Origin: Gaiellales bacterium
GTDB taxonomy: Bacteria > Actinomycetota > Thermoleophilia > Gaiellales > JAICJC01
Assembly: GCA_051955775.1 (NCBI GenBank)
Contig: JBQCGJ010000244.1
Span: 1-42,836, forward strand
DNA length: 42,836 nucleotides
Direction: 5' to 3'
Positions 12,309 to 38,875 of this stretch are shown piece after piece (position 1 is the first letter of the stretch; each line of letters starts with the position of its first letter). The notes under the pieces are model-generated. The model saw nothing but the letters and a program-made list of their open reading frames with translations, searched no databases and had not been told where the DNA came from. The translations under genes were made by a program, and so were the position numbers.

Positions 12309-14747
<2,439 letters not shown>

Positions 14748-14786
14748 TGACGACCGCCGCCGCGACGACGCCGGAGGGCTGAGCCG

Positions 14787-17336
<2,550 letters not shown>

Positions 17337-17440
17337 GCGTTCGTTAGCGGACGCCCGAACGGCGGAAGGACTCCAGGCCGTGCCCCCGAATACGGTCGTG
17401 GGCGTTGGGCGGGCGCAGCGGCCCGGAAGGGAGGACGGCC

Positions 17441-17815
17441 GTGAGGCAAGCTGACCTGCTGGAACCCATCGAGCTGGACAAGCGGCTGCAGCGCCTGGAG
17501 CTGCACCTGGGACAGGTGTGTGCCGTGGCGGGCGTGACCAAGATGCAGCTCGACTACTGGACGACGAAGGCCGCGATCCGCACCAGCGGCCGCAAGCAGC
17601 GCGTCTACGACATGCAGGCGCTGGAACTGGTCATGCTGATCAAGCAGGCCAAGGACAAGGGGCTCAACCTGCAGGCCGCGATCGCCGCGGCGCGCGAGTT
17701 CCAGGCCCGCGCAGGGGCTGCCACCGCCGCGCCGGTGGTGGACGACCTAGACCGCCCGCAGCTCCTCGGCGGCCACGTCCGGGTCGACCACGTTCAGCCA
17801 CAGGCCGGTACCTAG
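17441..17815 (+). CDS. Small MerR-superfamily HTH protein
   Basis: LGQVCAVAGVTKMQLDYW...RVYD...IKQAKDKGLNL pattern; GGAGG SD upstream of the GTG; the 3' end overlaps galT. Confidence 0.75.
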   Translation: MRQADLLEPIELDKRLQRLELHLGQVCAVAGVTKMQLDYWTTKAAIRTSGRKQRVYDMQALELVMLIKQAKDKGLNLQAAIAAAREFQARAGAATAAPVVDDLDRPQLLGGHVRVDHVQPQAGT

Positions 17816-18625
17816 CTCGAGCGAGGCCGGCACGGTCAGTCGCGGCAGCAGCTCCACGTGCCAGTGAAACTCCCCGCCGTCCGCGGCGTCGTGCAGCACT
17901 GCGTTCCACGCCAGGTCCTCGCCGAGCGCCGTCCGCAGCCGGATCACCGCGTCGCGCAGCGTGTGCGCCAGTGCCGCATGACTCGCGACCGACCCGGCGT
18001 GGTCGGTGGGAGCGATCCACATCTCGTAGGGCAGGCGGCTCCAGCCCGGGCAGAACGCCAGCAGCCCGTCGGATTCGACCACCGTGCGCCGCGCCTCGCC
18101 GTCCAGTACGCCGCACAGCCGGCAGTCTCCCGAGGTGGCGCGCTGCTCGGCCTCGAGAGTGGGCGGGAGCTCGGCGAACGGGACGAGCTGCGAGTGGGAG
18201 TGCTCCAGCGACGCGCCGGCCCCTGGCCCCTCGTTGATGCACGCCAGCACCCACGAGGCGCCTGCCCGCCGGTGCTCGGCGCGGCGCGCCGCCCAGGCGT
18301 CGAGCGTGCGCTCCAGCACCGCGGGTTCGACCTCGGCCACCGATGTCACGTGCACTCCGCCATGCACGGCCACCTCCTGGCCGGGGATGGCCGGGTACTT
18401 GTTGGGGACGACCCGCACCGACCATCCCGGGGAGTCGGCCGGCGCGCCGGGCGGGCGGTCGAGTGCCAGTGTCTCGGGCGGCGTGAGCTGCTCGTGGCCC
18501 TCACAGAACGGGCACGTGGCAGCCGCGTCGACCCGCGTCACACGGCCCAGCGCACCGGGCCGCGCGCGGCGGCCGGGGGCGATCACGACCGGCACCCCCG
18601 TCAACGGGTTGTGGCGAAGGTCTAT
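17747..18625 (-). CDS. GalT/HIT-family nucleotidyltransferase (galactose-1-phosphate uridylyltransferase-like); apparent ATA start
   Basis: [40 protein letters not shown] and [10 protein letters not shown] motifs. Confidence 0.85.
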
Positions 18626-19401
18626 CCGGCGTCCTTGGACATCAGCGACTGCAGGAGGTCGATCGGCACCGGCAGGATGGTTGTCGTGTTGTTGGTGGCC
18701 GACACCTCCAGCAGCGTCTGCAGGTAGCGCAGCTGCAGCGCAATCGGGTGCCGCGAGATCACCTCGGCCGCATCCGACAACCGGGTCGAGGCCTGGAACT
18801 CGCCCTCCGCCGAGATCACCTTGGCGCGGCGCTCTCGCTCGGCCTCCGCCTGGCGGGCCATCGCCCGCTGCATGCTGGTGGGGATCTCCACGTCGCGCAC
18901 CTCGACCACGCTGACCTTGATGCCCCAGGGCGCCGTCTGCTCGTCGATGATCTGCTGCAGGATCTGGTTGATCTGGTCGCGCTCGGACAGCAGCTCGTCC
19001 AGGGAATGCTGGCCGAGCACGCTGCGCAGCGTCGTCTGCGCGATCTGCAGGGTTGCCAGCCCGAAGTCCGCGACCTCCACGATGGCGGCGGTGGGGTCGA
19101 CCACACGAAAGTAGGCCACCGCGTTCACGCGCACCGGCACGTTGTCCTTGGTGATCACCTCCTGCGGCGGCACGACCAGCGTCACCGTTCGCAGATCGAC
19201 CCGCACCATCTTGTCCACGATCGGGATCAGCAGGAACAGCCCCGGCCCCTTGGGCTTCCCCAGCAGCCGTCCCAGCCGGAACACCACGCCGCGCTCGTAA
19301 ACCCGCAGCACCCGCACCGAGGCAGCCACGACGCCGATGATGAAGGCGATCAGGATGGCGGCCACGATCAGCTCGGCCACCGAGGACACAAGGACGATCA
19401 T
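18622..19401 (-). CDS. Stomatin/slipin SPFH-domain membrane protein
   Basis: [29 protein letters not shown] and [11 protein letters not shown] motifs. Confidence 0.95.
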
Positions 19402-20744
19402 GTATTGGCTCCTTCGGGAGGGGTGCCGTCAGCACGGACGACATGAAGAAGTAGTCCTTCGACGGCCTGCACCACAACCCGTCCTCCAGCGGGGATGGGC
19501 CGATCGTCAGCGTGCGCCCGCCACAGCTCGCCGCGCAGGAACACCTGGCCCTCCGGCGCCAGCGGTGTGCGGGCGACGGCCTCGGCGCCGAGCAGCCCAC
19601 GGCTGCCGGCGGCGGCGTGTCCCGCCACCGGCTGGTGGCGGGCGGCCACGACCTTGGTGGCCACGAACGCCAGGCCGGTGCCCAGCCCGGCGCCGATCAG
19701 GATCACCACCAGCGGCGATACCTCGGCGCCCCCTCCCGGTGTGCGGAACAGCATCAGGCCGCCCACGCACAGTGCGATCACGCCCGAGATCCCGATCAGA
19801 CCGTGGCTGGTCACCCACCCCTCCAGCAACAGCAGGATCACTCCGAAAACGATCAGCGCAGCGCCCGCCCAGTTGATGGGCACGATCGTGAATCCGAACA
19901 GGGCCAGGACGAGCGCGATCAGACCGAGCGTGCCCGGCAGGATCACGCCGGGGTGGAACACCTCGTAGGCCAGGCCGGCGATCCCGGCCAGGAACAGCAG
20001 GTACAGCAGGTTGGGATCGATCAGGATGTCCAGCAGCTGCAGCGTCCACGGCATGTCCAGGGTCTCGATGCGTGCGTTGGCGGTGTGCAGCACGATCGGC
20101 TTGTGGATGTAGGTCGTGGTCGTGCCATCGATACGGTCGAGCAGCACCGGCAGGCTGCGCGCGTCGTACTCGATCAGGTTGCCCCGCAGGGCCTCCTGGT
20201 CGGTGTACTCGGTGGCCTTGCTGACGATCAGCTGGGCCAGCACCGGGTTGCGCCCGTGGTCGACGGCCAGCCCGCGGATCTGGGCTTCGGCGTCGTTCAT
20301 CACCTTGCGGCGCAGGTCGGAGCCGCTGATGTTCCCTCCCGACGCGTCGATCGGAGTGGCGGCGCCGATGTGCGTGGTGGGCGCCCTGGCCGCCACGTCC
20401 GACGCCATGGTGATGAACGACCCGGCCGACGCCGCACGGGCGCCGGCGGGCGCCACGTACACGATCACCGGTACCGGCGAGTTCAGCTCGTCCTGGATGA
20501 TGTTGTTCATCGAGGTGGAGTCCCCGCCCGGGGTGTTGAGCAGGATCACCAGGGCCGCCGCGTGCTCGCTCTTGGCGTGGTTGATGGAGTCCTGGACGAA
20601 GCTGGCCGAGACCGGATTGATCTCGGAGTCGAGGCGGATCGCGACCACCAGCGGCTGGGACGAGGAACCGGCCGCGGCCGCGGGTCCTGCGCCGGCTGCC
20701 AGCGCCACGCAGGCCACGATCACCGCGGTCACCCACCTGGTCAT
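19398..20744 (-). CDS. nfeD: Long-form NfeD (ClpP-like protease, TM region and OB fold)
   Basis: Signal peptide, LNTPGG, AASAG (Ser), KVMND (Lys), GELWRA; adjacent to a stomatin gene. Confidence 0.92.
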
Positions 20745-20746
20745 GG

Positions 20747-21481
20747 TCAAATTGTACGACCTGTCGGGTCCACCGCTACCTCGGCCACCTCGGCCGAGGT
20801 ATACGCCACCCCGTCGACCACCAGGCGGCCCTCTCCGTCGGTGCCCTGGCTGATCCCGTGCGGGCCGTCTGCGAGCCGGATCCGGCGGCCCCGTAACTCG
20901 TCTCGCTCCAGCCCCGCGAACCCGCTGCACTCGAAGGCATCAAACCGTTGCTCGAGCGTCCACAGGAGGTCCGACAGGAGCTGCGCGCGGTTCACCGCCG
21001 ACCCCGTCTCGAGGAGCAGTGACGTGGCGGGCACGCGGGCGTCCGTGGGCAGGTCGGCTGGGGTCAGGTTGGCGTTCACCCCGATTCCGACCACCATCGT
21101 ACCGTTCCGCACCTCGGCCAGGATGCCCGCCAGCTTGCGTCCGTCCACCACCACGTCGTTCGGCCACCGCACCGCGGCCGCCGGGGCCACCGCGTCACAC
21201 ACCGCCTCGGCCGCCACCAGCGAGAACGGCGCGAGCCGATCGGGCGGCGTCGTGGGATGTAGCATCACCGAGAACAGGACGCCCAGCCCGTGGGGGCACG
21301 CCCATGCCCGGCCGCGGCGTCCCCGTCCGGCCGTCTGCTCCTCGCACGCGGCCACACCGAACGCCGGTAGGCCGTGCGCCAGCTCCTGTGTCGACTCGCA
21401 CACGTCGTGCCACTCGTATGGGCGTCCAAAGCGCCCGCGCAGCAGCGGTTCCACCTGCTCGCGGCGCAACGTGTTCTCCAT
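20747..21481 (-). CDS. birA: Biotin-protein ligase (no N-terminal HTH)
   Basis: QTAGRGRRGRAW, WPNDV, KLAGIL and VGIGVN motifs. Confidence 0.93.
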   Translation of the reverse strand: MENTLRREQVEPLLRGRFGRPYEWHDVCESTQELAHGLPAFGVAACEEQTAGRGRRGRAWACPHGLGVLFSVMLHPTTPPDRLAPFSLVAAEAVCDAVAPAAAVRWPNDVVVDGRKLAGILAEVRNGTMVVGIGVNANLTPADLPTDARVPATSLLLETGSAVNRAQLLSDLLWTLEQRFDAFECSGFAGLERDELRGRRIRLADGPHGISQGTDGEGRLVVDGVAYTSAEVAEVAVDPTGRTI

Positions 21482-21489
21482 GCGATCAC

Positions 21490-21496
21490 TAGAATA
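21490..21496. promoter_or_regulatory. Overlapping bidirectional -10 elements: TAGAAT(+) and TATTCT(-)
   Basis: Centre of the 22-bp gap between divergent birA and ECF start codons; no SD for either gene. Confidence 0.65.
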
Positions 21497-21503
21497 CGCG
21501 CCC

Positions 21504-22130
21504 ATGCTTTCGCAACCCAATCGCGGCTCGGCGCGTCTGACGGTTCGAGATCGGGGTCGCGATCAGCTTGCGTACCCCACCCTGTCGGACCTGGTGCTTG
21601 CGGTGCGCGCCAGGGACGGCGACCGACGCGCGCTGGAGACGCTGATCGAGCGGCACGCGGCGGGGGTGCGGAGGCTGGCCGGGTACCTGCTCTCGGACCC
21701 CAACGACGCGGAGGACGCGGCCCAGGAGGCGCTGGCAAAGCTGTGCACGAGGATCGGTCAGTTCAGAGGCGAGTCGCAGTTCGCGACCTGGCTGTACAGC
21801 CTGGTCGCCAACACCTGCCGCGACCTCGGAGAACGGCAGCGCCGGCGGCGGCACCAGCCGCTGGAGACGGCGCGGGAAGCGATCTGTCCAGACGAGCCGG
21901 CAGCGCTCGCATTGCAGCGCGATCAGCGCCGGGCGCTGCGCGAGAGCCTGGCCGGCCTGTCACTCGAGCAGCGGCACGTGATGGTCATGAAGGACGTGCT
22001 GTCGCTGTCGTACGAAGAGATCGCCGGCGCGCTGCGGATGCCGGTGGGAACGGTCAAGTGCCACGCCCACAGGGGACGGGCACGGATGCGGCGGGCGATC
22101 GGATCGCTGCGCCAGGCGGCGGGAGCGTGA
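21504..22130 (+). CDS. ECF-family RNA polymerase sigma factor
   Basis: Region 2 (DAEDAAQEAL, FATWLYSLVANTCRD) and region 4 (LSYEEIA..MPVGTVK); start uncertain. Confidence 0.92.
   Translation: MLSQPNRGSARLTVRDRGRDQLAYPTLSDLVLAVRARDGDRRALETLIERHAAGVRRLAGYLLSDPNDAEDAAQEALAKLCTRIGQFRGESQFATWLYSLVANTCRDLGERQRRRRHQPLETAREAICPDEPAALALQRDQRRALRESLAGLSLEQRHVMVMKDVLSLSYEEIAGALRMPVGTVKCHAHRGRARMRRAIGSLRQAAGA
21512..21537 (+). promoter_or_regulatory. ECF-type promoter GCAACC-N16-CGTC, copy 1
   Basis: AAC/CGT ECF signature; same motif and spacing recur at 26508. Confidence 0.65.
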
Positions 22131-22582
22131 TCGAGGGGCTGCGGCTGCCGCTCGACCGCCAGCGCATCCAGAGCATCATTCCCCACCGCGATCCGTTTCT
22201 GCTGGTGGACGAGGTGACCGAGCTGGAGCCGGGCGTGCGGGCCCGCGGCAGCTACCGGGTCGACCCCGGGGCGTGGTATCTGGCAGGCCACTTCCCCGGC
22301 AACCCGATCATGCCGGGCGTGCTGCAGGTCGAGGCGCTGGCGCAGCTGGGCGCCATCTGCGGGCTGTCGCATCCCGACCACGCAGGCCGGCTGGCGCTGT
22401 TCGCCGGCATCGACGACGTGCGGTTCAAGCAGATCGTGCGCCCGCTCGATGTGCTCGATCTGGAGGCGGAGATCGTGCGCCTGCGCGGGCCGGTGGGGCG
22501 CGCCGAGGTGCAGGCGAGCGTGGCCGGCAAGCCGGCCTGCCGGGGCACCATCACCTTCGCGCTGACCGAGGCGCCGGAGTGA
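22127..22582 (+). CDS. fabZ: 3-hydroxyacyl-ACP dehydratase
   Basis: IPHRDPFLLVD and GHFPGNPIMPGVLQVEALAQ; GTGA overlap with the sigma gene. Confidence 0.95.
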   Translation: MIEGLRLPLDRQRIQSIIPHRDPFLLVDEVTELEPGVRARGSYRVDPGAWYLAGHFPGNPIMPGVLQVEALAQLGAICGLSHPDHAGRLALFAGIDDVRFKQIVRPLDVLDLEAEIVRLRGPVGRAEVQASVAGKPACRGTITFALTEAPE

Positions 22583-23574
22583 TGGCCGCCTGCCGCGGCG
22601 GGGTGTCCGTGCTCGGGGTGGGCTCCCATGCGCCCAGCCGGGTGATGTCCAATGCGGAGCTGGCCACCATGATGGACACCTCCGACGAGTGGATCGCATC
22701 GCGCACGGGGATCCGCGAGCGGCGTGTGGCGGCCGATTCGGAGTCGCCGGTCGATCTTGGCTGGGAGGCCGCCCGGCGCGCGCTCGACGACGCCGGCCTC
22801 GAGCCGTCGGACGTCGACCTGATCGTGGCCGCCACGTCCAGCCCCGACTTCTACTTCCCGGCTACCGCTGCGCTGATCGGTCACCGGCTGGGCACGAATG
22901 CCGCCGGGTTCGACCTGTCGGCCGCGTGCAGCGGCTTCGTGTTTGCGCTCGCACAGGCCTACAGCCAGGTCGCCGCGGGCATCTCGGAGGTGTCGCTGGT
23001 CGTGGGGACGGAGGTCTTCTCGCGACTCCTGGATTGGTCAGACCGATCAACATGCGTGCTGTTCGGCGACGGCGCCGGCGCTGTCGTTCTCGGCCGCGAC
23101 ACCCGGTCGCGGGGACTGCTGGGGATCGAGCTGGGCTCGAACGGCGAGGGCGGCGATCTGCTGTGCGTGGCCGCCGCCGGGCATCGGCCGAACGGTCAGT
23201 CACCCTACGTGCGGATGGACGGCCCGCAGGTGTACAAGTTCGCGACCACGGTCAGCGTGGAGTCCGCGCTGCGCGTGCTGGACACGGCCGGACTGGAGGT
23301 GGCCGACGTGGACCGGTTCGTCCCGCACCAGGCCAACCAGCGGATCATCGAGCACGCCGCACGCCGGCTGGGGATCCCGTTCTCCAAGGTGGAGTCGAAC
23401 GTGGACCGCTACGGGAACACCTCGGCGGCCTCGATCCCCATCTGCCTGGACGAGGCGTATCGTGCCGGTCGCATCACGACCGGAGACATCGTGCTCATGA
23501 CCGGATTCGGTGGCGGGCTCTCGTGGGGTTCGTGCGTGATGGAATGGACAACGTCTCTGAAGGAGCGAGCATGA
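22582..23574 (+). CDS. fabH: Beta-ketoacyl-ACP synthase III
   Basis: DTSDEWI..RTGI, AACSGF, PHQAN and GNTSAAS (C-H-N triad). Confidence 0.95.
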   Translation: MAACRGGVSVLGVGSHAPSRVMSNAELATMMDTSDEWIASRTGIRERRVAADSESPVDLGWEAARRALDDAGLEPSDVDLIVAATSSPDFYFPATAALIGHRLGTNAAGFDLSAACSGFVFALAQAYSQVAAGISEVSLVVGTEVFSRLLDWSDRSTCVLFGDGAGAVVLGRDTRSRGLLGIELGSNGEGGDLLCVAAAGHRPNGQSPYVRMDGPQVYKFATTVSVESALRVLDTAGLEVADVDRFVPHQANQRIIEHAARRLGIPFSKVESNVDRYGNTSAASIPICLDEAYRAGRITTGDIVLMTGFGGGLSWGSCVMEWTTSLKERA

Positions 23575-24485
23575 GCAAGATCGCGTTCTGCTTCCCCGGG
23601 CAGGGGAGCCAGCGCGTGGGCATGGGTCGTGAGCTGGCTGCGGCGTACCCGGAGGCCGCCGCGGTGTACGAGGAGGCGTCCGACGAGCTCGGATTCGACG
23701 TGGCCAAGCTGTGCTTCGAGGGGCCGCTGGATCAGCTGTCACAGACCGAGCTGACCCAGCCGGCGCTGGTGGCGACATCGCTGGCAGCGCTGCGCGCCGT
23801 GCAGGTCAGGCTGGGCGTGCAGCCCGACGTGGTGGTCGGGCACAGCGTGGGTGAGTACGCCGCCATCGCGGCCGCCGACAGCGTCGGCATCGGAGCCGTC
23901 TCGCGGCTTGTCCGCGAACGCGGCCTGGCCATGGCGGCGTCCCGCGCCAACGGCGCCATGGCGGCGGTGCTGGGCCTGGATGACGACGAGGTGGAGCGGC
24001 TGTGCGCCGAGCGCGGTGACGTCTGGCCCGCCAACTACAACTGCCCCGGCCAGCTCGTCATCTCGGGCCGGGAGGACGCCGTGTCAAGCGTCGGCGACCG
24101 CGCTCGCGAGCTTGGTGCGAAGGTGGTCAGGCTGCGGGTCTCGGGGGCATTCCACAGCCCGCTCGTCGAGGATGCTGCACATCGCCTGGAGCCCGCGCTG
24201 CGCGCGGTCAGCTTCGGTGACCTGAAGACGCGCTTCGTGTCCACCGTGTCGTCCAAGCTGGAGACGGTCGACCGGGTGCCGGGGCTGCTGGTCGAGCAGC
24301 TCACCGCGCCCGTGCGCTTCACCCAGGCCGTACTGGGGATGGTGGCCGACGGCGTGCGCACCTTCGTCGAGGTCGGCGCCGGCAGCGTGCTGTCCGGGCT
24401 GGTCAAGCGGATCGACCGCAACGTGACCGCGGTGTCGGTGAGCACGCCCGACGACCTGCGAGCCGCTGAGGGCACGATTGCCTGA
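23571..24485 (+). CDS. fabD: Malonyl-CoA:ACP transacylase
   Basis: FPGQGSQ, GHSVGEY and GAFHS motifs. Confidence 0.96.
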   Translation: MSKIAFCFPGQGSQRVGMGRELAAAYPEAAAVYEEASDELGFDVAKLCFEGPLDQLSQTELTQPALVATSLAALRAVQVRLGVQPDVVVGHSVGEYAAIAAADSVGIGAVSRLVRERGLAMAASRANGAMAAVLGLDDDEVERLCAERGDVWPANYNCPGQLVISGREDAVSSVGDRARELGAKVVRLRVSGAFHSPLVEDAAHRLEPALRAVSFGDLKTRFVSTVSSKLETVDRVPGLLVEQLTAPVRFTQAVLGMVADGVRTFVEVGAGSVLSGLVKRIDRNVTAVSVSTPDDLRAAEGTIA

Positions 24486-25230
24486 GCGCGAGCTGGACGG
24501 GCGGGTGGCGCTGGTCACCGGCGGGTCGCGCGGCATCGGCGCGGCGATATGCGCCGAGCTGGCCGCGGCCGGAGCGACCGTGGCCGTCAACTACGCCCGC
24601 CGGTCCGACGCCGCGGAGGCGGTGGTGGAGGAGATACGCGGGGGCGGGGGCACCGCACATGCGATCGAGGGCGACATCTCCACGGCCGCGGGGGCGACCG
24701 GGCTGGTCGAGCACGTCGAGGCCGAGATCGGGCCGATCGCGATCCTCGTGTGCAACGCGGGGATCACGCGCGACGACCTGATCATGAGGCTGGACGAGAC
24801 CGCGTGGCGGGAGGTGATCGACACCAACCTGGGCGGCGCATTCTTCACTTGCCGGGCGGTGGCGAGGCCGATGCTGAAACGACGGGCCGGCGTGATCGTC
24901 ACCATGTCATCCGTCGTGGGCGTGCACGGGAATGCTGGTCAGACCAACTACGCAGCGTCCAAGGCGGGCCTGATAGGCCTCACCAAATCACTGGCCAAGG
25001 AGCTCGGCGGGCGGGGGATCCGGGTCAACGCGATCGCCCCCGGCTACATCGCCACGGACATCACGGCGGGCCTTCCGGAGCAGGCCACCGAGGCCATCCT
25101 GGCGTCCACGCCGCTGGGCCGGCTGGGCACGCCGGCGGATGTGGCGGCGGCTGTCAGGTTTCTGGTGTCGGATGCGGCAGGATTCATCACGGGTGATGTG
25201 TTGGCAGTGGACGGAGGTCTGGGGGCATGA
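24478..25230 (+). CDS. fabG: 3-oxoacyl-ACP reductase
   Basis: TGGSRGIG, NAGITRD and GQTNYAASK motifs. Confidence 0.95.
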   Translation: MPERELDGRVALVTGGSRGIGAAICAELAAAGATVAVNYARRSDAAEAVVEEIRGGGGTAHAIEGDISTAAGATGLVEHVEAEIGPIAILVCNAGITRDDLIMRLDETAWREVIDTNLGGAFFTCRAVARPMLKRRAGVIVTMSSVVGVHGNAGQTNYAASKAGLIGLTKSLAKELGGRGIRVNAIAPGYIATDITAGLPEQATEAILASTPLGRLGTPADVAAAVRFLVSDAAGFITGDVLAVDGGLGA

Positions 25231-26483
25231 GCTCGAACGGGCGGCGGAGAGTGGTGGTCACGGGCGTGGGCATGGTCAGCCCCTGCGGGCTGACGTTCGA
25301 CGAGTCGTGGCAGGGGATCCGGGACGGCGTGCCCGGGGTGGCCCGTGTGGAGGGCGTCGACATGCCCGAGGGTACGGTGGATATCGCGGCGCAGGTCAAG
25401 GGCTTCGACCCCGAGCAGTGGATGGAGAAGCGCTCCGCGCGGCGCACCGACCGTTTCTCGCAGTTCGCGGTGGCCGCGGCGAAGATGGCGATCGAGGACG
25501 CCGGCCTCGAGATCGGGGATGACGCACATCGCATCGGATGCTCCATCGGCACCGGGATCGGCGGACTGGGCACGCAGGAGGTGGCCCACGCCAAGCTGTT
25601 CGAGGCCGGCCCGAGCCGTCTCAACCCGTTCTGGGTGACCGCGCTGATCGCGAACATGGGCGCGGCGGAGGTGTCGATGTCGCTGGGCACGCGCGGGCCG
25701 CTGACGACCGAATGCACGGCCTGCGCGGCCTCCGGCATGTCGCTCGGCAACGCGCTTCTGTACATCCGCGCGGGGATGGCCGACGCGATGCTCGCCGGCG
25801 GGGTGGAGGCGCCGATCTGGCGGCTCGCCCTGGGCGGATTCGGCACCATGCGCGCGCTGTCGAGGCGGCTCGACGATCCGGCCGGCGCCAGCCGTCCGTT
25901 CGACTCCGGGCGCGACGGGTTCGTGCTCGCCGAGGGCGGCGCGGTGCTCGTGCTGGAAGAGCTGGAGCGGGCGCGGGCGCGCGGCGCCCGCATCCTCGGG
26001 GAGGTGGCCGGCTACGGCATGTCCTCAGACGCCCATCACGTGACCGAGCCCGACCCGGTCGGCACCAACCCGGCTCGCGCCATGACGATGGCGATGGAGG
26101 ACGCCGGCGTCACGCCGGACCAGATCGGGTATATCAACGCGCACGGCACGTCAACGCCCGCAGGCGACACGGCCGAGACCAGGGCGCTGAAGCTCGCGCT
26201 GGGCGAGGACGAGGCGCGGCGGATCCCGATCTCGTCGACCAAGGGCGTGACCGGCCACATGCTGGGGGCGGCCGGGGCGGTCGAGGCCGCCGTGACCCTG
26301 GCGGCGATGCGCGACGGCTTCGTGCCGCCGACCGCCAACCTGACCGATCCCGACCCGACGTGTGACCTGGACTACATCCCGAACACCGGTCGCGCCGCCG
26401 ACGTCGAGGTCGCCATCTCCAACTCCTTCGGGTTCGGCGGCCATAACGCCGTGCTCGTGCTGCGGCGGGAGCCGGTGGACTGA
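25227..26483 (+). CDS. fabF: Beta-ketoacyl-ACP synthase II
   Basis: TACA, NAHGTST, GHMLGAAG and SNSFGFGG motifs. Confidence 0.95.
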   Translation: MSSNGRRRVVVTGVGMVSPCGLTFDESWQGIRDGVPGVARVEGVDMPEGTVDIAAQVKGFDPEQWMEKRSARRTDRFSQFAVAAAKMAIEDAGLEIGDDAHRIGCSIGTGIGGLGTQEVAHAKLFEAGPSRLNPFWVTALIANMGAAEVSMSLGTRGPLTTECTACAASGMSLGNALLYIRAGMADAMLAGGVEAPIWRLALGGFGTMRALSRRLDDPAGASRPFDSGRDGFVLAEGGAVLVLEELERARARGARILGEVAGYGMSSDAHHVTEPDPVGTNPARAMTMAMEDAGVTPDQIGYINAHGTSTPAGDTAETRALKLALGEDEARRIPISSTKGVTGHMLGAAGAVEAAVTLAAMRDGFVPPTANLTDPDPTCDLDYIPNTGRAADVEVAISNSFGFGGHNAVLVLRREPVD

Positions 26484-26507
26484 CGTCGCCGCCCGGCGGC
26501 CGTCCAC

Positions 26508-26533
26508 GCAACCTTTTCCGAGCCTGTATCGTC
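26508..26533 (+). promoter_or_regulatory. ECF-type promoter GCAACC-N16-CGTC, copy 2 (upstream of accD)
   Basis: Lies in the only sizeable intergenic gap of the fab cluster; identical hexamer, tetramer and spacing to copy 1. Confidence 0.7.
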
Positions 26534-26549
26534 CGGACTTCAGCCTCAC

Positions 26550-27524
26550 GTGGCCGATCACATCAGCGTCGATATCACCCGTGTGACCGATGGCGATGCC
26601 GATCCCGGCCCCGCCACGCGCACCCGCAACACCTGCCCTCGCTGTGCGTCGCATTACCGCGAGGATGAGATGGTGGCCAACCTGCGGGTGTGCACGCACT
26701 GCGGCTACCACTTCCCGGTGGCCGCCCGCGAGCGCATCGTGCAGCTTGTCGACGAGGGGTCGTGGACCGAGGTGGCGCGCGGCCTGCAGTCCGCCGACCC
26801 GCTGGAGTTCACCGACACCAGGCCGTACACCGAGCGCACGGCCGACGCCCAGGAGGCCACGGGGCTGCTGGACGCGGTGCTGGTCGGTGTGGCCTCGATC
26901 GGCGGCCAGCGCACCGCGCTCGCCGTCATGGACTTCACGTTTCTCGGCGGGTCGATGGGGTCGGTGGTGGGCGAGAAGTTCGTGCGGGTCGCCCATGTCG
27001 CTCTGGAGCAGCGGATCCCGCTGGTGTCGGTGGCGTCGTCCGGCGGCGCCCGCATGCAGGAGGGCGTGCTGGCGCTGATGCAGATGGCGAAGACGGTGTC
27101 GGCAGTGGACGAGCTGCGTGAGGCCGGCCGCCCATTCGTGTCGGTGCTCGCACACCCCACGACCGGCGGCGTGGCTGCCAGCTTCGCCGCGCTGGGCGAC
27201 GTCATCATGGCCGAGCCGGGCGCTCTGCTGTCGTTCTCCGGCCCGCGGGTGGTCCGTCAGACCACCCGGGAGACGGTGCCCGACGACTTCGGCCTGGCCG
27301 AGTCCAACCTCGAGCACGGCCACATCGACATGATCGTTGCCCGCGCCGAGCTGCGCGACCAGCTGGCGAGAGCGGTCGCCCTGCTGTCGGGCGGCACGCC
27401 GTACCGGCGGCCGACCGTGCTCGAGATCGATGCGGTGGGCGCGTTCGCCCGAGTGCTCGGCGACATGCGGCGGCGGGTGGGCGGCGTCTTCCGGCCGCCC
27501 TCCGACAACGGCGAGGGTCCGTGA
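26550..27524 (+). CDS. accD: Acetyl-CoA carboxylase carboxyltransferase beta subunit
   Basis: CPRC..CTHC zinc finger, GGSMGSVVGEK and SGGARMQEG. Confidence 0.95.
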   Translation: MADHISVDITRVTDGDADPGPATRTRNTCPRCASHYREDEMVANLRVCTHCGYHFPVAARERIVQLVDEGSWTEVARGLQSADPLEFTDTRPYTERTADAQEATGLLDAVLVGVASIGGQRTALAVMDFTFLGGSMGSVVGEKFVRVAHVALEQRIPLVSVASSGGARMQEGVLALMQMAKTVSAVDELREAGRPFVSVLAHPTTGGVAASFAALGDVIMAEPGALLSFSGPRVVRQTTRETVPDDFGLAESNLEHGHIDMIVARAELRDQLARAVALLSGGTPYRRPTVLEIDAVGAFARVLGDMRRRVGGVFRPPSDNGEGP

Positions 27525-28366
27525 CCGCCGGCGGCCGCAGATTCGGGTTCCTGCGCCGGGGTGGGGCGGATGCCGACTCCTGGCATGCCGTCCAGCTTGC
27601 CCGGCACCAGGATCGCCCATACACCCTGGACTACCTCGGGCGTATCTGCGACGACTTCATGGAGCTGCACGGCGACCGGGCAGAGGGCGACGACCCGGCG
27701 ATCGTCGCCGGCATCGGCTCGTTCCGCGGCCAGTCCGTGGCCTTCGTCGGTCATCAGAAGGGCCGTGACCTCAAGGAGCGCACCTTCCGCAACTTCGGCA
27801 TGCCGCGCCCGGAGGGGTACCGCAAGGCGATGCGGGTGTTCCAGCTCGCCGCCCGTCTGGACTTCCCGGTTGTCACCCTCATCGATACGCCCGGCGCCTA
27901 CCCGGGCGTTGGCGCCGAGCAGCGCGGCCAGTCCGGCGCGATCGCTCGCTCGCAGATGCTGCTGATGGGCCTGCGGGTGCCGGTGGTGGCCTGTGTGATC
28001 GGTGAGGGCTCGTCCGGCGGCGCGCTCGCGATCGGGGTGGCCGACCGCGTACTGATGCAGCAGAACGCGGTGTACACGGTGATCTCGCCTGAGGGCTGCG
28101 CGTCGATCCTGTGGAAGGACGCCGGCGAGGCCAGGCGGGCGGCGGGCGCGCTCAAGCCCACGGCCGAGGCGTGCCTGGCGCTGGGTGTGGTCGACGACAT
28201 CGTGCCCGAGCCGTCGGGCGGCGCGCACCGCGACCCGGCTCGCTCAGCCGAGCTGTTGGCCGACGCCATCGCAGGCGAGCTGGAGGTGGTCAGCGCCATC
28301 CCGCCTCCGGAGCGCCGCCGGCTGCGACGGGAGAAGTTCCAGCGGCTTGGCGCGTGGGTCGAGTAG
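27521..28366 (+). CDS. accA: Acetyl-CoA carboxylase carboxyltransferase alpha subunit
   Basis: ELHGDR, RNFGMPRPEGYRKA, IDTPGAYPG and SPEGCASILW motifs. Confidence 0.95.
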   Translation: MTAGGRRFGFLRRGGADADSWHAVQLARHQDRPYTLDYLGRICDDFMELHGDRAEGDDPAIVAGIGSFRGQSVAFVGHQKGRDLKERTFRNFGMPRPEGYRKAMRVFQLAARLDFPVVTLIDTPGAYPGVGAEQRGQSGAIARSQMLLMGLRVPVVACVIGEGSSGGALAIGVADRVLMQQNAVYTVISPEGCASILWKDAGEARRAAGALKPTAEACLALGVVDDIVPEPSGGAHRDPARSAELLADAIAGELEVVSAIPPPERRRLRREKFQRLGAWVE

Positions 28367-28376
28367 CCTCTCGCCG

Positions 28377-29423
28377 GTGACGCGACGCGAGACGCTCACC
28401 TTCGCGGCCGTGTTCGGCCTGGCGGCGGTCGCGGTGATCTTGCGAATCGCCGGCGTCGCCGGGCAGGTGGTGTTCATCATGTCGGCGGCGTCGCTGATGG
28501 CGCTGGCGTGGCTGCTGGGGGAGGCCACCGACCAGGCCGGCGACACGGCCGGGCCGCGTGTGTCCGCGCTGCTCAACGCCTCCATGGGCAACCTGCCCGA
28601 GATGGTGATCGTGGTGCTCGCGATCAACGCGGGGCTTGCTGACATCGCCCGCGCGTCCATCATCGGCTCGGTGATCGGGAACATCCTGATGATCCTCGGC
28701 CTGTCGCTCGTGCTGGGAGGCTGGAAGAACGGCGTTCAGACCTTCAACCAGCGGCTGGCTGCCACCAACTCCTCGATGCTGGTGCTGGCGGTTGCCGGGC
28801 TGGGCGTGCCGACGCTGTTCGCCGCGGTCAACTCGGATGCACATGACGCGGAGGTGTTGTCGTGGTGGACCGCCGCGGCGCTGCTGGTCACGTACGTGGC
28901 CTACCTGTACTACTCGTTCACCACGCCGGGCCTGCGCTACCGCCACAAGCATCAGGGCGGGACGTGGACGCGCACGCAGGCGGTCGCGCTGCTGTGCCTG
29001 ACCGCGCTGGCGACCGGCGTGGTCAGCGAGGTGCTGGTGCACTCGATCGCGCCCACCGTGCGCGACCTGGGCGTGCCGCGGGCGTTCATCGGGCTGATCG
29101 TGGTGCCGTTCGTGGGGAACGCCGCCGAGCATTTCTCCGCCGTTCGCCTGGCCTACCGGAACAGCCTCGACTTCGCGATGGGCATCGCCTACGGGTCGGG
29201 CATCCAGATCGCCCTGGCCGCGTCGGCGCTGGCGGTGTTCGCGTCGATCCCGCTCGGCCCGAACCTGACGCTCGTCTTCCCGCCGCTGGAGCTGGCGGCC
29301 CTGGCGGCGGCGGCGCTGGTGTCCACGCTGGTCGCACGAGGCGGCGAGACCAACTGGCTCGAGGGCCTGCAGCTGCTGGTCATCTATTTCGTGGTTGCGG
29401 TGTCTTTTTGGTTGCTCGGCTGA
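28377..29423 (+). CDS. Ca2+/H+ antiporter (CAX/ChaA, CaCA family)
   Basis: Alpha repeats GNLPE and GNAAEH, SIIGS..GN, TNWLEG. Confidence 0.9.
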   Translation: MTRRETLTFAAVFGLAAVAVILRIAGVAGQVVFIMSAASLMALAWLLGEATDQAGDTAGPRVSALLNASMGNLPEMVIVVLAINAGLADIARASIIGSVIGNILMILGLSLVLGGWKNGVQTFNQRLAATNSSMLVLAVAGLGVPTLFAAVNSDAHDAEVLSWWTAAALLVTYVAYLYYSFTTPGLRYRHKHQGGTWTRTQAVALLCLTALATGVVSEVLVHSIAPTVRDLGVPRAFIGLIVVPFVGNAAEHFSAVRLAYRNSLDFAMGIAYGSGIQIALAASALAVFASIPLGPNLTLVFPPLELAALAAAALVSTLVARGGETNWLEGLQLLVIYFVVAVSFWLLG

Positions 29424-31695
29424 GCGAGGCTGGTCTGCGCGCACGGTTCGCCTCGCCACGCCGAGACGGGTCAGCCGCTGCCGCTGCCAGCAGCTCCAGT
29501 GTGCGCAGGGCGCCCTTCTTGGACAGCGGGTGGTTGAGGTCGCCGCACTTCGGCGACTGGACGCATGACGGGCATCCCCTGGCGCACGGGCACGCGCGCA
29601 GCAGCTCGGCCGTGGTGGCGGTCCAGCGCTCGAACAGCTCGAATCCGCGGGCGGCGATGCCGACCCCGCCCGGATGGCCGTCGTACACGAACACCGTGGG
29701 CAGGCCCGTGTGCATGTGGTGTGACGTCGACAACCCGCCGATGTCCCCGCGGTCGCACGTCGCGAGCAGCGGCAGCAGCGAGATCATGGCGTGTTCGGCC
29801 GCGTGCAGGCTGCCCAGCAGCGGCTCTCCGTCCGGCACGGCAGGACTGAACCACACCGCCTCGGTCGAATACGTGTGCGCGGGGAGCTCCAGCTCGGTGA
29901 GGTCGATCGGGGTGTGGTCGGCCAGCCGCCGGCGCTGGAACCCGACCACCTGCTCGCGCATCTCGACGCCTCCCAGCGTGAGGCAGATGCCCGCCTGCTC
30001 GCGTGCGGCGTGCTCCGCCTGCACGGTCACGGCCGAGACGGTCTTCGGCTGCGTGTAGTAGTCGCCGGCGAAGGGCTCGACGACAGCCACCCGCCCCTCC
30101 AGATCGAGCTCGCGCACCAGCAGCCGCTCGCCCTGGTGCAGATACACGGCGCCGGGATGCACCGTGGACGGCGCCCGGGCCACGTCGACCAGCCCGCACA
30201 GCGCGCCGGTGGCGGCATCCACCACCGCCACGGCGCCGGCGCCGGTCGATCGCAGTGAGATTCGGCCTGCCGGATGGTCGAGCCCGCGGAAGACGAATCC
30301 GGCCCGTGTCGGCGCCAGGTCGCTCAGCTCCGCCGCGAGCGCGAGCGCGCCGCGTCCGAAGTGCTGCTCGTCGGCGGGCACCAGCGGCCGTTCCGCCGCC
30401 GCCGCCAGCAGGTGGCCGGACAGCACAGCAGGATTCCCCGGATTGGCCACCGCGGCCTCCACCGGGCGCGCCAGCAGCTCGTCCGGGTGGCGTGCGAAGT
30501 ACTGGTCGAGCGCGTCGTCGCCCGCGACCATCACCCCCAGTCCCGCCCGCCGCCGGCCCGCACGGCCCCACTGCTGGCGAAGCGAGGCCATCGACCCGGG
30601 AAAGCCGACGGACACGGCGCAATCCAGGTGCCCGACATCCACGCCAAGCTCGAGCGCGCTGGTGGCGACGACCCCCAGCAGCCGGCCGCCGGCCAGGCCC
30701 TGCTCGATCTCGCGCCGCTGCTCGGGGGTGTACCCGGCCCGATACGGGGCGATGGCGGCCGCGGCCTGAGGCGCGTGCCGTTCCAGCGCCTCGCGGGCGT
30801 ACCGGTACATCAGCTCGCAACCGCGCCGGGACTTGGCGAACGCGATCGTGCGCACGTCGCGGGCGACCAGGCCGGCGAACAGGGCCGCGGCCTCGCCCAG
30901 CGCGCTGGCCCGGATGCCCAGCGCCTCGTCCAGCAGGGGCGGGTTCCACACGGCCAGCTCCCGCTCGGCCGCCGGCGAGCCGTCCTGCTCGATCAGCGTG
31001 ACCGGCCCACCGGCCAGCACCTCGGCCGCCGGCCCGGGGTTCGCGACGGTGGCGGACGCGAGCAGGAACCGCGGCCGAGATCCATAGGCCGCGCACACGC
31101 GTCGCAGCCGCGCCAGCACATTGGCCACGTGCGAGCCGAACACCCCGCGGTAGGCGTGTGCCTCGTCGACCACGACGAAGCGCAGGTTGGCCAGCAGGTC
31201 GGCCCAGGCGGCGTGTGCCGGGAGCAGTCCGACGTGCAGCATGTCCGGGTTGGTGAGCACCACGTTCGCCCACTCGCGGGCCTGGCGTCGCTGCGCCGGC
31301 GGCGTGTCCCCGTCGTACATGGCCAGCCGCAGGCCGGGCGGACGCAGGCCGGCCATCGAGCGCGCCTGGTCATGTGCCAGGGCCTTGGTGGGATACAGGT
31401 AGAGGGCGCAGGCCCGGCGGTCGCCGGCAACCGCATCCAGCACCGGCAGGTTGAACCCCAGCGACTTGCCCGATGCGGTGCCGGTGACGATCGCGATGTT
31501 GCCCAGCGCCGCCGCCGCAAATGCCTCGGACTGATGTGAGTAGAGCTGCTCGACGCCGGCCGCCCGCAGGGCCGCGGCCAGCTCGGGATGCAGGGTGTCG
31601 GGGAGCGGCGCCACCTGGGCCGGCCGGGCGGGCACGTCGCGCCGGGCAACCACCTGCTCCATGGCCAGCAGGTCTGCCCAGGCGGACGACGTCAC
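29380..31695 (-). CDS. DEAH helicase with C-terminal DUF1998 (MrfA/Hrq1/SftH-like)
   Basis: TASGKSL, DEAH, SAT, QQWGRAGRR; C..CPC..GCPSC zinc motif; GTGA overlap with pheA. Confidence 0.92.
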   Translation of the reverse strand: MTSSAWADLLAMEQVVARRDVPARPAQVAPLPDTLHPELAAALRAAGVEQLYSHQSEAFAAAALGNIAIVTGTASGKSLGFNLPVLDAVAGDRRACALYLYPTKALAHDQARSMAGLRPPGLRLAMYDGDTPPAQRRQAREWANVVLTNPDMLHVGLLPAHAAWADLLANLRFVVVDEAHAYRGVFGSHVANVLARLRRVCAAYGSRPRFLLASATVANPGPAAEVLAGGPVTLIEQDGSPAAERELAVWNPPLLDEALGIRASALGEAAALFAGLVARDVRTIAFAKSRRGCELMYRYAREALERHAPQAAAAIAPYRAGYTPEQRREIEQGLAGGRLLGVVATSALELGVDVGHLDCAVSVGFPGSMASLRQQWGRAGRRRAGLGVMVAGDDALDQYFARHPDELLARPVEAAVANPGNPAVLSGHLLAAAAERPLVPADEQHFGRGALALAAELSDLAPTRAGFVFRGLDHPAGRISLRSTGAGAVAVVDAATGALCGLVDVARAPSTVHPGAVYLHQGERLLVRELDLEGRVAVVEPFAGDYYTQPKTVSAVTVQAEHAAREQAGICLTLGGVEMREQVVGFQRRRLADHTPIDLTELELPAHTYSTEAVWFSPAVPDGEPLLGSLHAAEHAMISLLPLLATCDRGDIGGLSTSHHMHTGLPTVFVYDGHPGGVGIAARGFELFERWTATTAELLRACPCARGCPSCVQSPKCGDLNHPLSKKGALRTLELLAAAAADPSRRGEANRARRPASLSRATKKTPQPRNR

Positions 31696-37530: not shown

Positions 37531-38096
37531 CCCTCGAGCAACCCCGCGATGCGGTCGTGCAGGTCGGCGCGGTAGCGGAACAGCCCGCCCGGACCGGCGC
37601 GCAACACGGAGGCCACCGGCCCGGTGAGCTCATGCATGGTCATCCAGCGTGCATCGTCGATCTCCCGGCGGTCACGCGGTGCCAGACGGGTGTTGCGCAC
37701 CGGATGAGCCGTGACGACGTGCGTCGTCCAGCGGTCGACGCCCCCGTCCGCGTGCACGAACCGCGCGCGGACCACCAGCAGGTACGAGTCCAGCTCGATG
37801 CGCAGGCCGATCTCCTCCATTGCCTCGCGCAGCACGCCCTGTTCGAAGCTCTCGCCGCGGGCGATCCCCCCGGATGGGATCCGCCACGCGCCCGGCGGGA
37901 AGGTCGGCTTGCGGATCACCGCCACCCGTCCACGTGCGTCCCACACGGCGAAGGTGACGTCGTGGCGGCGGTCCGGGCCGCCCATCCCCAGCGTCCTGCG
38001 GTCGCCCCGCGGCAGGGGCACCGTCGGCCGCCACTCCCGCGGGCGGCCCAGACGCCGCCGCCCCGGAGCCAGCAGAGCGCGGTCGACGTGCGTCAC
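37527..38096 (-). CDS. NUDIX hydrolase
   Basis: Nudix box GGIARGESFEQGVLREAMEEIG. Confidence 0.9.
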   Translation of the reverse strand: MTHVDRALLAPGRRRLGRPREWRPTVPLPRGDRRTLGMGGPDRRHDVTFAVWDARGRVAVIRKPTFPPGAWRIPSGGIARGESFEQGVLREAMEEIGLRIELDSYLLVVRARFVHADGGVDRWTTHVVTAHPVRNTRLAPRDRREIDDARWMTMHELTGPVASVLRAGPGGLFRYRADLHDRIAGLLEG

Positions 38097-38857
38097 GACG
38101 CCAGGTGCCGCAGCAGCTCGGCCACCTCTCTTGGCCCGTCCAGCACCTCGTCGGCCATGTCGAGCAGCTCCTGCGGCCCCTCCGCCGAGCGCACGGCGAT
38201 GCGGATCGTCGCCTCGCGGAAGGCGTCGATGTCACTGCGGTCGTCACCGCAGAACAGGAGCTCGGTGATCCGCTTTCGCCCCCGCAGACGGCGCACCGCC
38301 GAGCCCTTGTCGAGCGGCACGGGAGGCCGCACCTCCAGCACCATGCGCCCGAACGCCGCCGCCAGGCCGGCGCGCTCCAGCTTGGGCACGATCTGCGCCT
38401 CCAGATAGCGCAGTGCGTGGTCGGGCCGGGGCGAGTTGCGGAAGTGCACGGTGAAGGTGATGCCCTTGTCCTCGACCTTGCAGCCCAGCTCGGGTAGCAG
38501 CCCGTCGTTCTGCACCATGACCAGCGCGTGGCGCACCGCGTCGCGGTGCTTGGCCGCCTGCGGCGCCAGGTGCACGGCGCCGTCGCGCCACACCTCCAGC
38601 CCGTGATTGCCGGAGATGGCAACGGTCTCGACCGGCACCAGGCGCCGGGCCTCAGCGGCAGGGCGGCCGGTCACACAGGCCACCAGCCCGTAGCGGCCGG
38701 CCAGCCGTTCCATCACGTTCAGGGTCGCCTTTGGCACCCGCGCTCGCGCGGGTGTGGAGACGATCGGCGCCAGCGTGCCGTCGATGTCGCACACGATCGC
38801 GCTGCGCCTGGGGTCGGCGACCAGCGGGGCAACCAGCCGGACCAGCCGCTCGTCCAC
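38093..38857 (-). CDS. otsB: Trehalose-6-phosphate phosphatase (HAD IIB)
   Basis: DIDGTLAPIV, TGR, GNHGLE, EDKG, LEVRP..DKG and GDDRSD motifs. Confidence 0.9.
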   Translation of the reverse strand: MDERLVRLVAPLVADPRRSAIVCDIDGTLAPIVSTPARARVPKATLNVMERLAGRYGLVACVTGRPAAEARRLVPVETVAISGNHGLEVWRDGAVHLAPQAAKHRDAVRHALVMVQNDGLLPELGCKVEDKGITFTVHFRNSPRPDHALRYLEAQIVPKLERAGLAAAFGRMVLEVRPPVPLDKGSAVRRLRGRKRITELLFCGDDRSDIDAFREATIRIAVRSAEGPQELLDMADEVLDGPREVAELLRHLAS

Positions 38858-38875
38858 GCTGCAACAATACCCGCC

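Follow-up and report, generated by a model that had tools for sequence, protein, structure and literature searches.

Core fatty acid synthesis in bacteria is usually under the control of metabolite-sensing repressors. FapR, FabT, FabR, FadR and FasR coordinate the genes of type II fatty acid synthesis (FAS-II), with FapR and FasR also coordinating genes linked to malonyl-CoA. Input of extracytoplasmic function (ECF) sigma factors into membrane-lipid and fatty acid genes is known already, as with sigmaW and SigX. Here, an ECF sigma factor gene is analysed that stands in front of the fab genes and accD-accA of a Gaiellales bacterium, at positions 21504-28366 of a 42,836-nt stretch of DNA (the window; contig C244 of genome G000).

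Among the closest described systems, sigmaW of Bacillus subtilis is encoded away from the fab genes together with its anti-sigma factor RsiW and governs a broad stress regulon. A sigmaW promoter lying inside the operon fabHA-fabF raises the expression of the downstream elongation genes (PMC8144471; PMC3875570; Kingston et al. 2011 as summarised there); this promoter is placed inside the fabHa coding sequence by one of the two reviews (PMC8144471/PMC3875570), and the activity of sigmaW is said to be under the control of regulated steps (PMC8144471). SigX of Pseudomonas aeruginosa is an orphan ECF sigma factor with no anti-sigma factor in its operon, the over-production of which raises accA, accB, accD, fabD, fabG and other fatty acid synthesis genes and alters membrane fluidity; that study reports no consensus promoter upstream of the fatty acid synthesis operons and suggests indirect control (PMC3875570). 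In Corynebacterium glutamicum, the ECF sigma factor sigmaD serves corynomycolate genes as an insulated small regulon with the motif GTAAC(A/G) ... GAT and the anti-sigma factor RsdA (PMC6338062). A further relevant precedent is promoter P3 of sigE in Mycobacterium tuberculosis, which is sigmaH-dependent, lies within the coding region and gives rise, from two non-canonical starts, to isoforms of 215 and 218 amino acids compared to 257 amino acids of the main product (PMC10027907).

Comparison of the window with its relatives suggests that the ECF sigma factor is probably the coupled first cistron of the Gaiellales FAS-II operon, with two promoter tiers and a small regulon of lipid and biotin genes. 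The conservation of gene order, of a promoter motif at five kinds of site, of rare codons within one of these sites and the joint occurrence of sigma factor and motif point to this arrangement.

Organization and conservation of the sigma-fab operon

Gene identities were assigned by a Pfam search of the window proteins, which, together with the gene junctions, bears out the claim of an earlier note, made from the letters of the window, that an ECF sigma gene is the first cistron before fabZ-fabH-fabD-fabG-fabF and accD-accA and is divergent from birA. The features are as follows.

20747-21481, minus strand: birA, group-I biotin-protein ligase (Pfam PF03099, BPL_LplA_LipB, no helix-turn-helix match); start codon CAT 21479-21481
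21490-21497, both strands: shared -10 box, TAGAAT on the plus strand (21490-21495) and TATTCT on the minus strand, with TAnnnT conserved
21504-22130, plus strand: ECF (group IV) sigma factor, 208 amino acids, basic N-terminal extension of about 26 amino acids (Pfam Sigma70_r2 and Sigma70_r4_2 only)
21511-21537, plus strand: motif 1, ECF-type promoter motif within sigma codons 3-12; -35 GCAACC 21512-21517, -10 CGTC 21534-21537, predicted transcription start about 21545-21548
22127-22582, plus strand: fabZ (Pfam FabA-like)
22579-23574, plus strand: fabH, KAS-III (Pfam)
23571-24485, plus strand: fabD, acyltransferase (Pfam)
24478-25230, plus strand: fabG, short-chain dehydrogenase/reductase (Pfam)
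25227-26483, plus strand: fabF, KAS-II (Pfam)
26507-26533, plus strand: motif 2, ECF-type promoter motif in the fabF-accD gap; -35 26508-26513, -10 26530-26533, predicted transcription start about 26541-26544
26550-27524, plus strand: accD, carboxyltransferase beta, start GTG 26550 (Pfam)
27521-28366, plus strand: accA, carboxyltransferase alpha (Pfam ACCA)

The genes fabZ, fabH, fabD, fabG and fabF form one co-directional overlapping array as expected of a type II fatty acid synthesis operon, with GTGA at the sigma/fabZ, fabZ/fabH and accD/accA junctions, ATGA at fabH/fabD and fabG/fabF, and an overlap of 8 nt between fabD and fabG if fabG starts at TTG 24478. The sole intergenic gap of the array from sigma to accA is the 66 nt between fabF and accD (26484-26549), and no anti-sigma domain was found by Pfam among the neighbours from 12357 to 37284; both points had been read correctly before. 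In the ECF family an anti-sigma factor encoded together with the sigma factor is typical but not universal. The birA ATG is 22 bp from the sigma ATG, with the end of the minus-strand birA open reading frame (ORF) placed at 21481/21520. The gene acpP does not lie between fabG and fabF; in G000, a genome of 3.44 Mb in 409 contigs with 70.7% G+C and 90.5% completeness, it is found with plsX on contig C294. Here and below, G, L and C numbers denote genomes compared, loci and contigs, f3 and f7 families, and g2 and g7 genera.

The synteny of sigma and fabZ, proposed as a check, extends well beyond the genome of the window. All 24 same-family genomes have a sigma orthologue (68-93% identity) and show the order birA<>sigma-fabZ-fabH-fabD-fabG-fabF-accD-accA, two of them cut by contig ends. 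Furthermore, fabZ-fabH-fabD(-fabG-fabF) follows sigma in 79 of 80 loci, the best of 535 relatives that a search of species-representative genomes brought up (the two sets overlap in three loci, on the contigs of G003, G005 and G022), and the remaining locus, L086, ends at sigma. In the Gaiellaceae, accD-accA is displaced 0.8-3 kb beyond fabF. In a class sample of 201 genomes, orthologues at E 1e-35 or better occur in the family of the window (3/3) and in family f3 (21/32) and were not found at this threshold in the nine other families. The sigma stop codon overlaps the fabZ start in all 25 junctions examined (GTGA; ATGA in G026), with the frameshifted G011 left out. In G011, the sigma orthologue is in two overlapping pieces, residues 1-125 and 117-205 (C9 1350239-1350857; L025, L054), which suggests a frameshift or an assembly error, and contigs C30 and C6 of G017 carry near-identical duplicate sigma-fab loci that are likely assembly redundancy (contamination 5%).

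The sigma protein has regions 2 and 4 only, without region 3 or 1.1 (Pfam PF04542 and PF08281/PF04545), which places it in the ECF (group IV) family of sigma-70 factors. Among the best 25 of 81 NCBIfam families, the only model passed is TIGR02937, sigma70-ECF (94.3 bits, cut-off 42.9), and all equivalog and subfamily models remained below cut-off, including the best named one, SigM NF007225 (111.1 bits, cut-off 190), and the SigW models (81 and 72 bits, cut-offs 209 and 243). Its relatives among PDB structures, by sequence, are RpoE, SigE, SigW and SigH. The extension before the L-S-D block has a median length of 25 amino acids and a median net charge of +4. Within the protein, Cys105 is invariant in 79 of 79 orthologues, as is His189, while Cys186 is found in 77 and Cys81 in 75 of the 79; Cys81, Cys105 and Cys186, with His189, may constitute a redox or metal site in a sigma factor that has no anti-sigma factor.

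An ECF-type promoter motif within the sigma reading frame

The motif CGCAACC-N16-CGTC has exactly two matches in the window, 21511-21537 and 26507-26533, both on the plus strand and with the identical spacing that had been pointed out. With an expectation of 0.14 for the window and at least two copies in 2 of 100 shuffles, this count is weak evidence alone, the motif having been selected post hoc from the same sequence. Motif 1 sits within the sigma ORF (ATG 21504), in codons 3-12, and not upstream of the gene. Since it is downstream of the conserved start codon, transcripts from motif 1 cannot encode full-length sigma. Its proposed role as promoter of the sigma operon thus stands as far as a conserved ECF-type motif is concerned, but not as a classical autoregulatory promoter for the full-length sigma factor.

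This site is kept as CGCAACC-N16-CGTC in 24 of 25 family genomes, with CGGC in G007, and in G026, where sigma is 49% identical, it reads GTGCAACC-N16-CGTC with a different intervening peptide. Among the 80 further loci, 60 match CAAC[CT]-N15-18-CGT[CAT] at the sigma 5' end, 59 of them with N16. CAA is used for Gln at codon 4 by 25 of 25 family genomes and CGT for Arg at codon 11 by 24 of 25, whereas in the fab and acc genes of the same genomes CAA accounts for 18 of 1163 Gln codons (1.5%) and CGT for 245 of 3711 Arg codons (6.6%), and third codon positions elsewhere are only 52-63% identical. Because these rare codons are fixed, the constraint acts on the DNA itself. Codons 13-30 show conservation of the coding type, with pairwise identities of 0.69 at the first, 0.79 at the second and 0.52 at the third codon position, and on this ground the N-terminal extension is taken to be translated with ATG 21504 as the start.

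TAGAAT precedes the sigma ATG by 8 nt, and its minus-strand reading TATTCT precedes the birA ATG by 9 nt; 25 of 25 family genomes have a TAnnnT box 8-10 nt upstream of the sigma start codon. We infer that this shared box would be a housekeeping-type, -10-only bidirectional promoter giving rise to near-leaderless birA and sigma mRNAs. A scan of 20500-29800 for sigma-70-type promoters returned no promoter-like site, the method requiring both hexamers and being blind to a -10-only box, and the two terminator-like sites in the same range did not exceed shuffled sequences. The inner -35 element starts 16 nt after the housekeeping box.

In Gaiellaceae sigma genes, start codon and motif merge into [A/G]TGCAACC, and regulon promoters of the same genomes read CGCAACC or AGCAACC, which indicates a separate constraint for the start codon at the sigma site. 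In family f7, which belongs to other Thermoleophilia, an ECF sigma factor of 34-38% identity is located upstream of fabZ in seven of eight sampled genomes, with a zf-HC2 protein between sigma and fabZ (PF13490, 31.5 bits; checked for one). The 5' region of the f7 sigma gene carries G[T/C]AAC-N17-CGTCT[A/G]A with an in-frame ATG or GTG in the spacer in seven of seven, and no homologue of the f7 anti-sigma factor was found at E 0.01 or better in G000, a genome that is 90.5% complete. A promoter after or across the start codon thereby occurs at three offsets: 7 nt past the ATG in the family of the window, fused to the GTG in the Gaiellaceae and with the ATG within the spacer in f7.

Genome-wide sites and predicted targets

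In G000, GCAACC-N16-CGTC has 21 matches compared to about 15 expected from base composition, and a weight matrix built from the conserved sites yields 17 matches of at least 13 bits in the genome and 23 in the reversed genome. As such counts barely exceed chance, the case for the motif rests on its conservation and on the location of the best matches. The four best matrix matches in G000 are the sigma site (23.3 bits) and, on other contigs, sites of 21.0, 21.0 and 20.2 bits which belong to asp23, bioY and fabF2, a second gene for KAS-II. In the complete genome G010, the pattern has 20 matches against 15 in the control, and only sigma, asp23 and fabF2 reach at least 19 bits, with the next match at 14.4 bits in coding sequence. 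Other matches in G000 (C125, C280, C407, C175, C326) are located within coding regions or upstream of ORFs that carry no annotation. A third match to GCAACC-N16-CGTC in the window, 38829-38854 (plus strand), stays below 13 bits, falls within the span of the minus-strand ORF 38093-39154 and is probably due to chance. Matches to CAAC[CT]-N16-CGTC within fabD were rejected as coding artefacts, TACAACT being part of the codons for N-Y-N-C-P-G-Q.

With AAC in the -35 element and CGT or GTC in the -10 element, GCAAC[CT]-N16-[CG]GTC shows conservation, which had been proposed as a check, at sites of five kinds, namely the sigma 5' end, accD, fabF2, asp23 and bioY, mostly with N16 and with variable spacer sequence. 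The fabF2 site is found in 22 of 22 family genomes, always with N16 and with the ATG 8-11 nt after CGTC, so that, counted from a leaderless start, GCAACC would span about -35 to -30 and CGTC about -13 to -10. The neighbours of fabF2 (ClpP, CBS, aldehyde dehydrogenase) differ between genomes, and in G010, where the next gene downstream is convergent, fabF2 looks monocistronic. The motif precedes asp23 in 24 of 25 family genomes, with none in the 260 nt examined in G002, and bioY in 11 of 18.

In the fabF-accD gap, 13 of 23 family genomes have the motif, with a spacer that is N16 or N17 and unrelated in sequence; it is absent from the 10 genomes of genera g2 and g7, the gap of which is only 10-30 nt; the second motif before accD that had been described for the window is thus seen in part of the family but not in the other ten. 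Six Gaiellaceae loci have GCAAC[CT]-N15/16-[CG]GTCTAA before the displaced accD, and overall, 10 of 39 evaluable loci carry a motif before accD.

By Pfam, the genes behind the off-locus sites of G000 encode Asp23 with a fused Dak2/FakA-M/DegV protein, BioY and the second KAS-II. The fused protein of 601 amino acids (C294 10693-12498; L138:1694-3499, minus strand) consists of Dak2, the FakA middle domain and DegV and looks like a fusion of two fatty-acid-kinase subunits, behind Asp23 and an ECF-type promoter. Of the extra targets that had been predicted, acpP, accBC and plsX, none has a motif of its own, and the actual additional sites are those of fabF2, asp23-fakA/degV and bioY: acpP and plsX in G000 share the strand of the asp23 promoter and follow it at a distance of 6-8 kb, and the three biotin-carboxylase loci show no matrix match of at least 9 bits.

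Two side observations concern these upstream regions. A putative rpmB, recognised by eye only, is divergent from asp23 (G000 C294 about 12920-12960 and relatives), with a TATACT-type box 8 nt before its putative ATG; this box abuts the ECF -35 element of asp23 in the same back-to-back leaderless layout as at birA and sigma. Upstream of bioY in L143 and L147 (G022, G010) and L148 (G001), a repeated palindrome-like element of the CTTACCGTAAG / TTACGTAAGT type replaces or accompanies the ECF motif; this element may be an operator of another biotin regulator.

Co-occurrence of sigma factor and motif and relocation into fabH

In six Gaiellales genomes without a sigma orthologue (G025, G027, G031, G039, G030, G034), fabZ stands directly behind a TAnnnT box, with birA divergent in four of the six and the ECF motif in none. 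Equally, in sigma-less genomes the motif is missing before asp23 (0/4; G030, G034, G039, G091) and before fabF2 (0/5; G025, G027, G031, G034, G039). The sigma-bearing Gaiellaceae have GCAAC[CT]-N16-[CG]GTC before asp23 in nine of nine genomes (G026, G041, G043-G045, G079, G103, G114, G230), four of them with GGTC, and the motif before fabF2 in three of four examined, with N15 or N17. Within a single genus, G026 and G030 have the box TAGACTCGCCGGGTG in common; the gene behind it is sigma in G026 and fabZ in G030. This co-occurrence is supportive and no test, the genomes being related and not independent; taken together, the comparison supports reading the motif as a conserved promoter of the ECF type that is linked to this sigma factor.

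A further site was recognised in fabH. In 22 of 58 alignable loci (L069-L118, Gaiellaceae), with 21 loci not matching the search expression left uncounted, CGCAACC-N16-CGTC is located about 750 nt into fabH, where H-A-T-x-K-L-G-x-P-S is written CAC GCA ACC ... CCG TCN and other clades have A-A ... P-K/E/R. That these matches are coding artefacts like those in fabD was considered and rejected, as the sites are CGCAACC with the rare Ala codon GCA (6.6% of Ala codons). The fabH site is present in 16 of the 20 loci without the sigma 5' site, and only six loci carry both. The exchange reflects one or few events because the loci form a clade; it fits the idea that both sites would do the same job of driving the downstream fab genes.

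The surroundings of the operon are otherwise ordinary. Among the neighbouring genes, gyrB-gyrA are at 12357-17336, and a MerR regulator, a DUF4921-like protein and an SPFH/NfeD membrane pair are beside birA at 17405-20750; a Na/Ca exchanger and a helicase are also encoded nearby.

A two-tier model and its alternatives

In the model considered probable here, the first tier would be the -10-only housekeeping box TAGAAT, back-to-back with birA, which would produce near-leaderless mRNAs for a basal level of sigma factor and Fab enzymes. In the second tier, the sigma factor would read [C/T]GCAAC[C/T]-N16-[C/G]GTC. An mRNA made from the inner site would have its 5' end roughly 40 nt past the sigma ATG (about 21545-21548) and carry the fab genes without full-length sigma, and further second-tier sites would be those before accD-accA, fabF2, asp23-fakA/degV (with plsX and acpP further down on the same strand) and bioY. 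Once active, the sigma factor would raise elongation, malonyl-CoA supply, biotin uptake and fatty acid recycling together. As the inner -35 begins 16 nt after the box, housekeeping and ECF polymerases should exclude each other, and the ECF holoenzyme may block birA too. The favoured role of the inner site is a sigma-dependent boost of the fab genes that would bypass sigma synthesis and occlude the overlapping first-tier promoter. The relocation of the site to fabH speaks for this role; it meets a difficulty in the coupling of sigma and fabZ. The joint control of elongation enzymes and malonyl-CoA supply claimed by the earlier note receives support from motifs at both gene sets, but is qualified by the intragenic position of motif 1 and by the presence of the accD site in only 13 of 23 genomes.

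Several observations weigh against the two-tier model. The motif shows no genome-wide enrichment in G000, neither in the pattern count nor in the matrix scan, and the accD and bioY sites are lineage-restricted. The exact sigma 5' site is not present in 20 of the 80 further loci, mostly with an N-terminus about 7 codons shorter, with near-variants in L078, L086, L121 and L122 and with L098 cut by a contig end. G026 carries sigma but no motif at fabF2. The translation of sigma and fabZ is apparently coupled, and a transcript without the sigma start might translate fabZ poorly. Lastly, that the motif is read by this sigma factor, rather than by another of the about 15 sigma-70-family matches in G000, is inferred from co-occurrence in genomes that are not independent.

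The last point opens the way to another reading, in which the motif is a real ECF-type promoter of a different sigma factor and the sigma gene of the operon would be co-regulated cargo with a regulon elsewhere. ECF promoters of related groups are alike, the genome offers those other sigma-70-family candidates and the link between this sigma and the motif has been drawn by sequence comparison; on the other hand, the motif is found on the sigma's own gene in three lineages, only in genomes with this sigma factor, with both in G026 and neither in G030 of the same genus, and the three top sites of G010 are the sigma's own and two at lipid genes, so that we regard this reading as improbable. Far less credible still is the absence of any sigma regulon, with motif 1 as an N-terminal peptide or a birA -35 element and motif 2 as chance. 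Motif 1 is indeed coding, TTGGGT, the reverse complement of ACCCAA, is separated by 16 nt from TATTCT on the minus strand, conserved protein motifs can produce a look-alike of the pattern as in fabD, and genome-wide enrichment was not seen. However, the peptide between Q and R varies across families while GCAACC, CGTC and N16 are fixed, the fixed rare codons CAA and CGT point to selection on DNA, the would-be birA -35 is variable at its third base (TTG/TTC), and the same motif recurs in non-coding DNA before fabF2, asp23, bioY and accD in many genomes with unrelated spacers. The conservation of the off-locus sites and the codon evidence largely refute this explanation.

A different question is what the inner promoter does for the sigma factor itself. 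Its mRNA might be translated from a downstream, possibly non-canonical start to yield a shorter sigma factor without the basic extension and thereby positive autoregulation by an isoform switch, which appears possible although rather doubtful. A precedent exists with P3 of sigE (PMC10027907), and an in-frame GTG at codon 31, from where the protein would have a canonical ECF N-terminus, is found in 22 of 25 family genomes. This GTG is missing, however, in G009 and G012, the latter having none at codon 34 either; in Gaiellaceae sequences inspected by eye, no in-frame ATG, GTG or TTG is conserved in the stretch from the motif to the L-S-D block, there is no evident Shine-Dalgarno sequence, and a clade lost the site after gaining the one in fabH, which suggests service to the downstream fab genes. 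Equally tentative is the broader idea that promoter placement on or after the own start codon is a feedback or isoform switch replacing an anti-sigma factor, with the sigma factor sensing lipid or redox state through Cys105, Cys81 and Cys186 or the N-terminal extension; in that case, sigma-driven transcription of the essential FAS-II operon would yield no sigma or a shortened one and would occlude the overlapping housekeeping promoter, which also serves birA.

Significance and comparison with known systems

Known ECF inputs into fatty acid synthesis are side branches of broad stress regulons, as with sigmaW, or possibly indirect, as with SigX. The locus described here has an alternative sigma factor built into the FAS-II operon across an order of abundant, almost uncultured soil actinobacteria, and as judged from the sequences compared, a dedicated transcription switch appears to govern membrane-lipid synthesis. 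The candidate regulon is small and sharp-edged and would join the elongation enzymes, acetyl-CoA carboxylase, biotin uptake and a fatty-acid kinase, which offers a testable model of how membrane-lipid output is set in these bacteria as well as a compact orthogonal pair of sigma factor and promoter without an anti-sigma factor. Furthermore, the loci provide a natural series for the movement of a promoter in an operon, with the promoter inside the sigma ORF, within fabH or ahead of accD, or gone together with sigma, and the layout with the promoter after the start codon poses a concrete question on sigma feedback.

The view that such an arrangement had not been described holds in part. No published description of this arrangement was found in the literature searched, and the main text of the ECF re-classification (Casas-Pastor et al. 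2021) does not contain 'fatty acid', 'lipid' or 'acyl', while its supplementary group tables, not covered here, could hold such a group; ECF control of fab and acc genes, however, has precedents in sigmaW and SigX. What appears to be new is a sigma factor embedded in and coupled to the FAS-II operon, with no anti-sigma factor, with a small coherent regulon of lipid and biotin genes and with a putative cognate promoter past its own start codon.

The likeness to sigmaW consists in the RpoE/SigW sequence neighbourhood and in a promoter embedded in the fab operon, and the motif inside fabH of the Gaiellaceae clade echoes the sigmaW promoter in fabHA-fabF of B. subtilis. Unlike sigmaW, the sigma factor of the window is the first cistron of the operon, has no adjacent anti-sigma factor and has detectable sites almost only at lipid and biotin genes. 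SigX differs in that sigX is outside the fab operon and its regulon is large and pleiotropic. The f7 Thermoleophilia share an ECF sigma gene upstream of fabZ and a promoter of a like type which overlaps the start of the sigma ORF, and differ in the zf-HC2 anti-sigma factor between sigma and fabZ, whereas the sigma gene of the window abuts fabZ. Like sigmaD of C. glutamicum, the sigma factor would be an actinobacterial ECF factor for lipids with a small regulon and a -35 motif of the AAC type; the targets of sigmaD are mycolyl-transferases and fadD2, not core FAS-II or acetyl-CoA carboxylase (PMC6338062). The likeness to P3 of sigE in M. tuberculosis is that an ECF-type promoter is positioned inside the sigma ORF, past the principal start codon, although P3 is read by another sigma factor, sigmaH, in a gene unlinked to lipid synthesis and with short isoforms shown there. 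Finally, whereas FapR, FabT, FabR, FadR and FasR are DNA-binding repressors or activators with metabolite ligands, control in the Gaiellales operon would act via promoter recognition by an alternative sigma factor.

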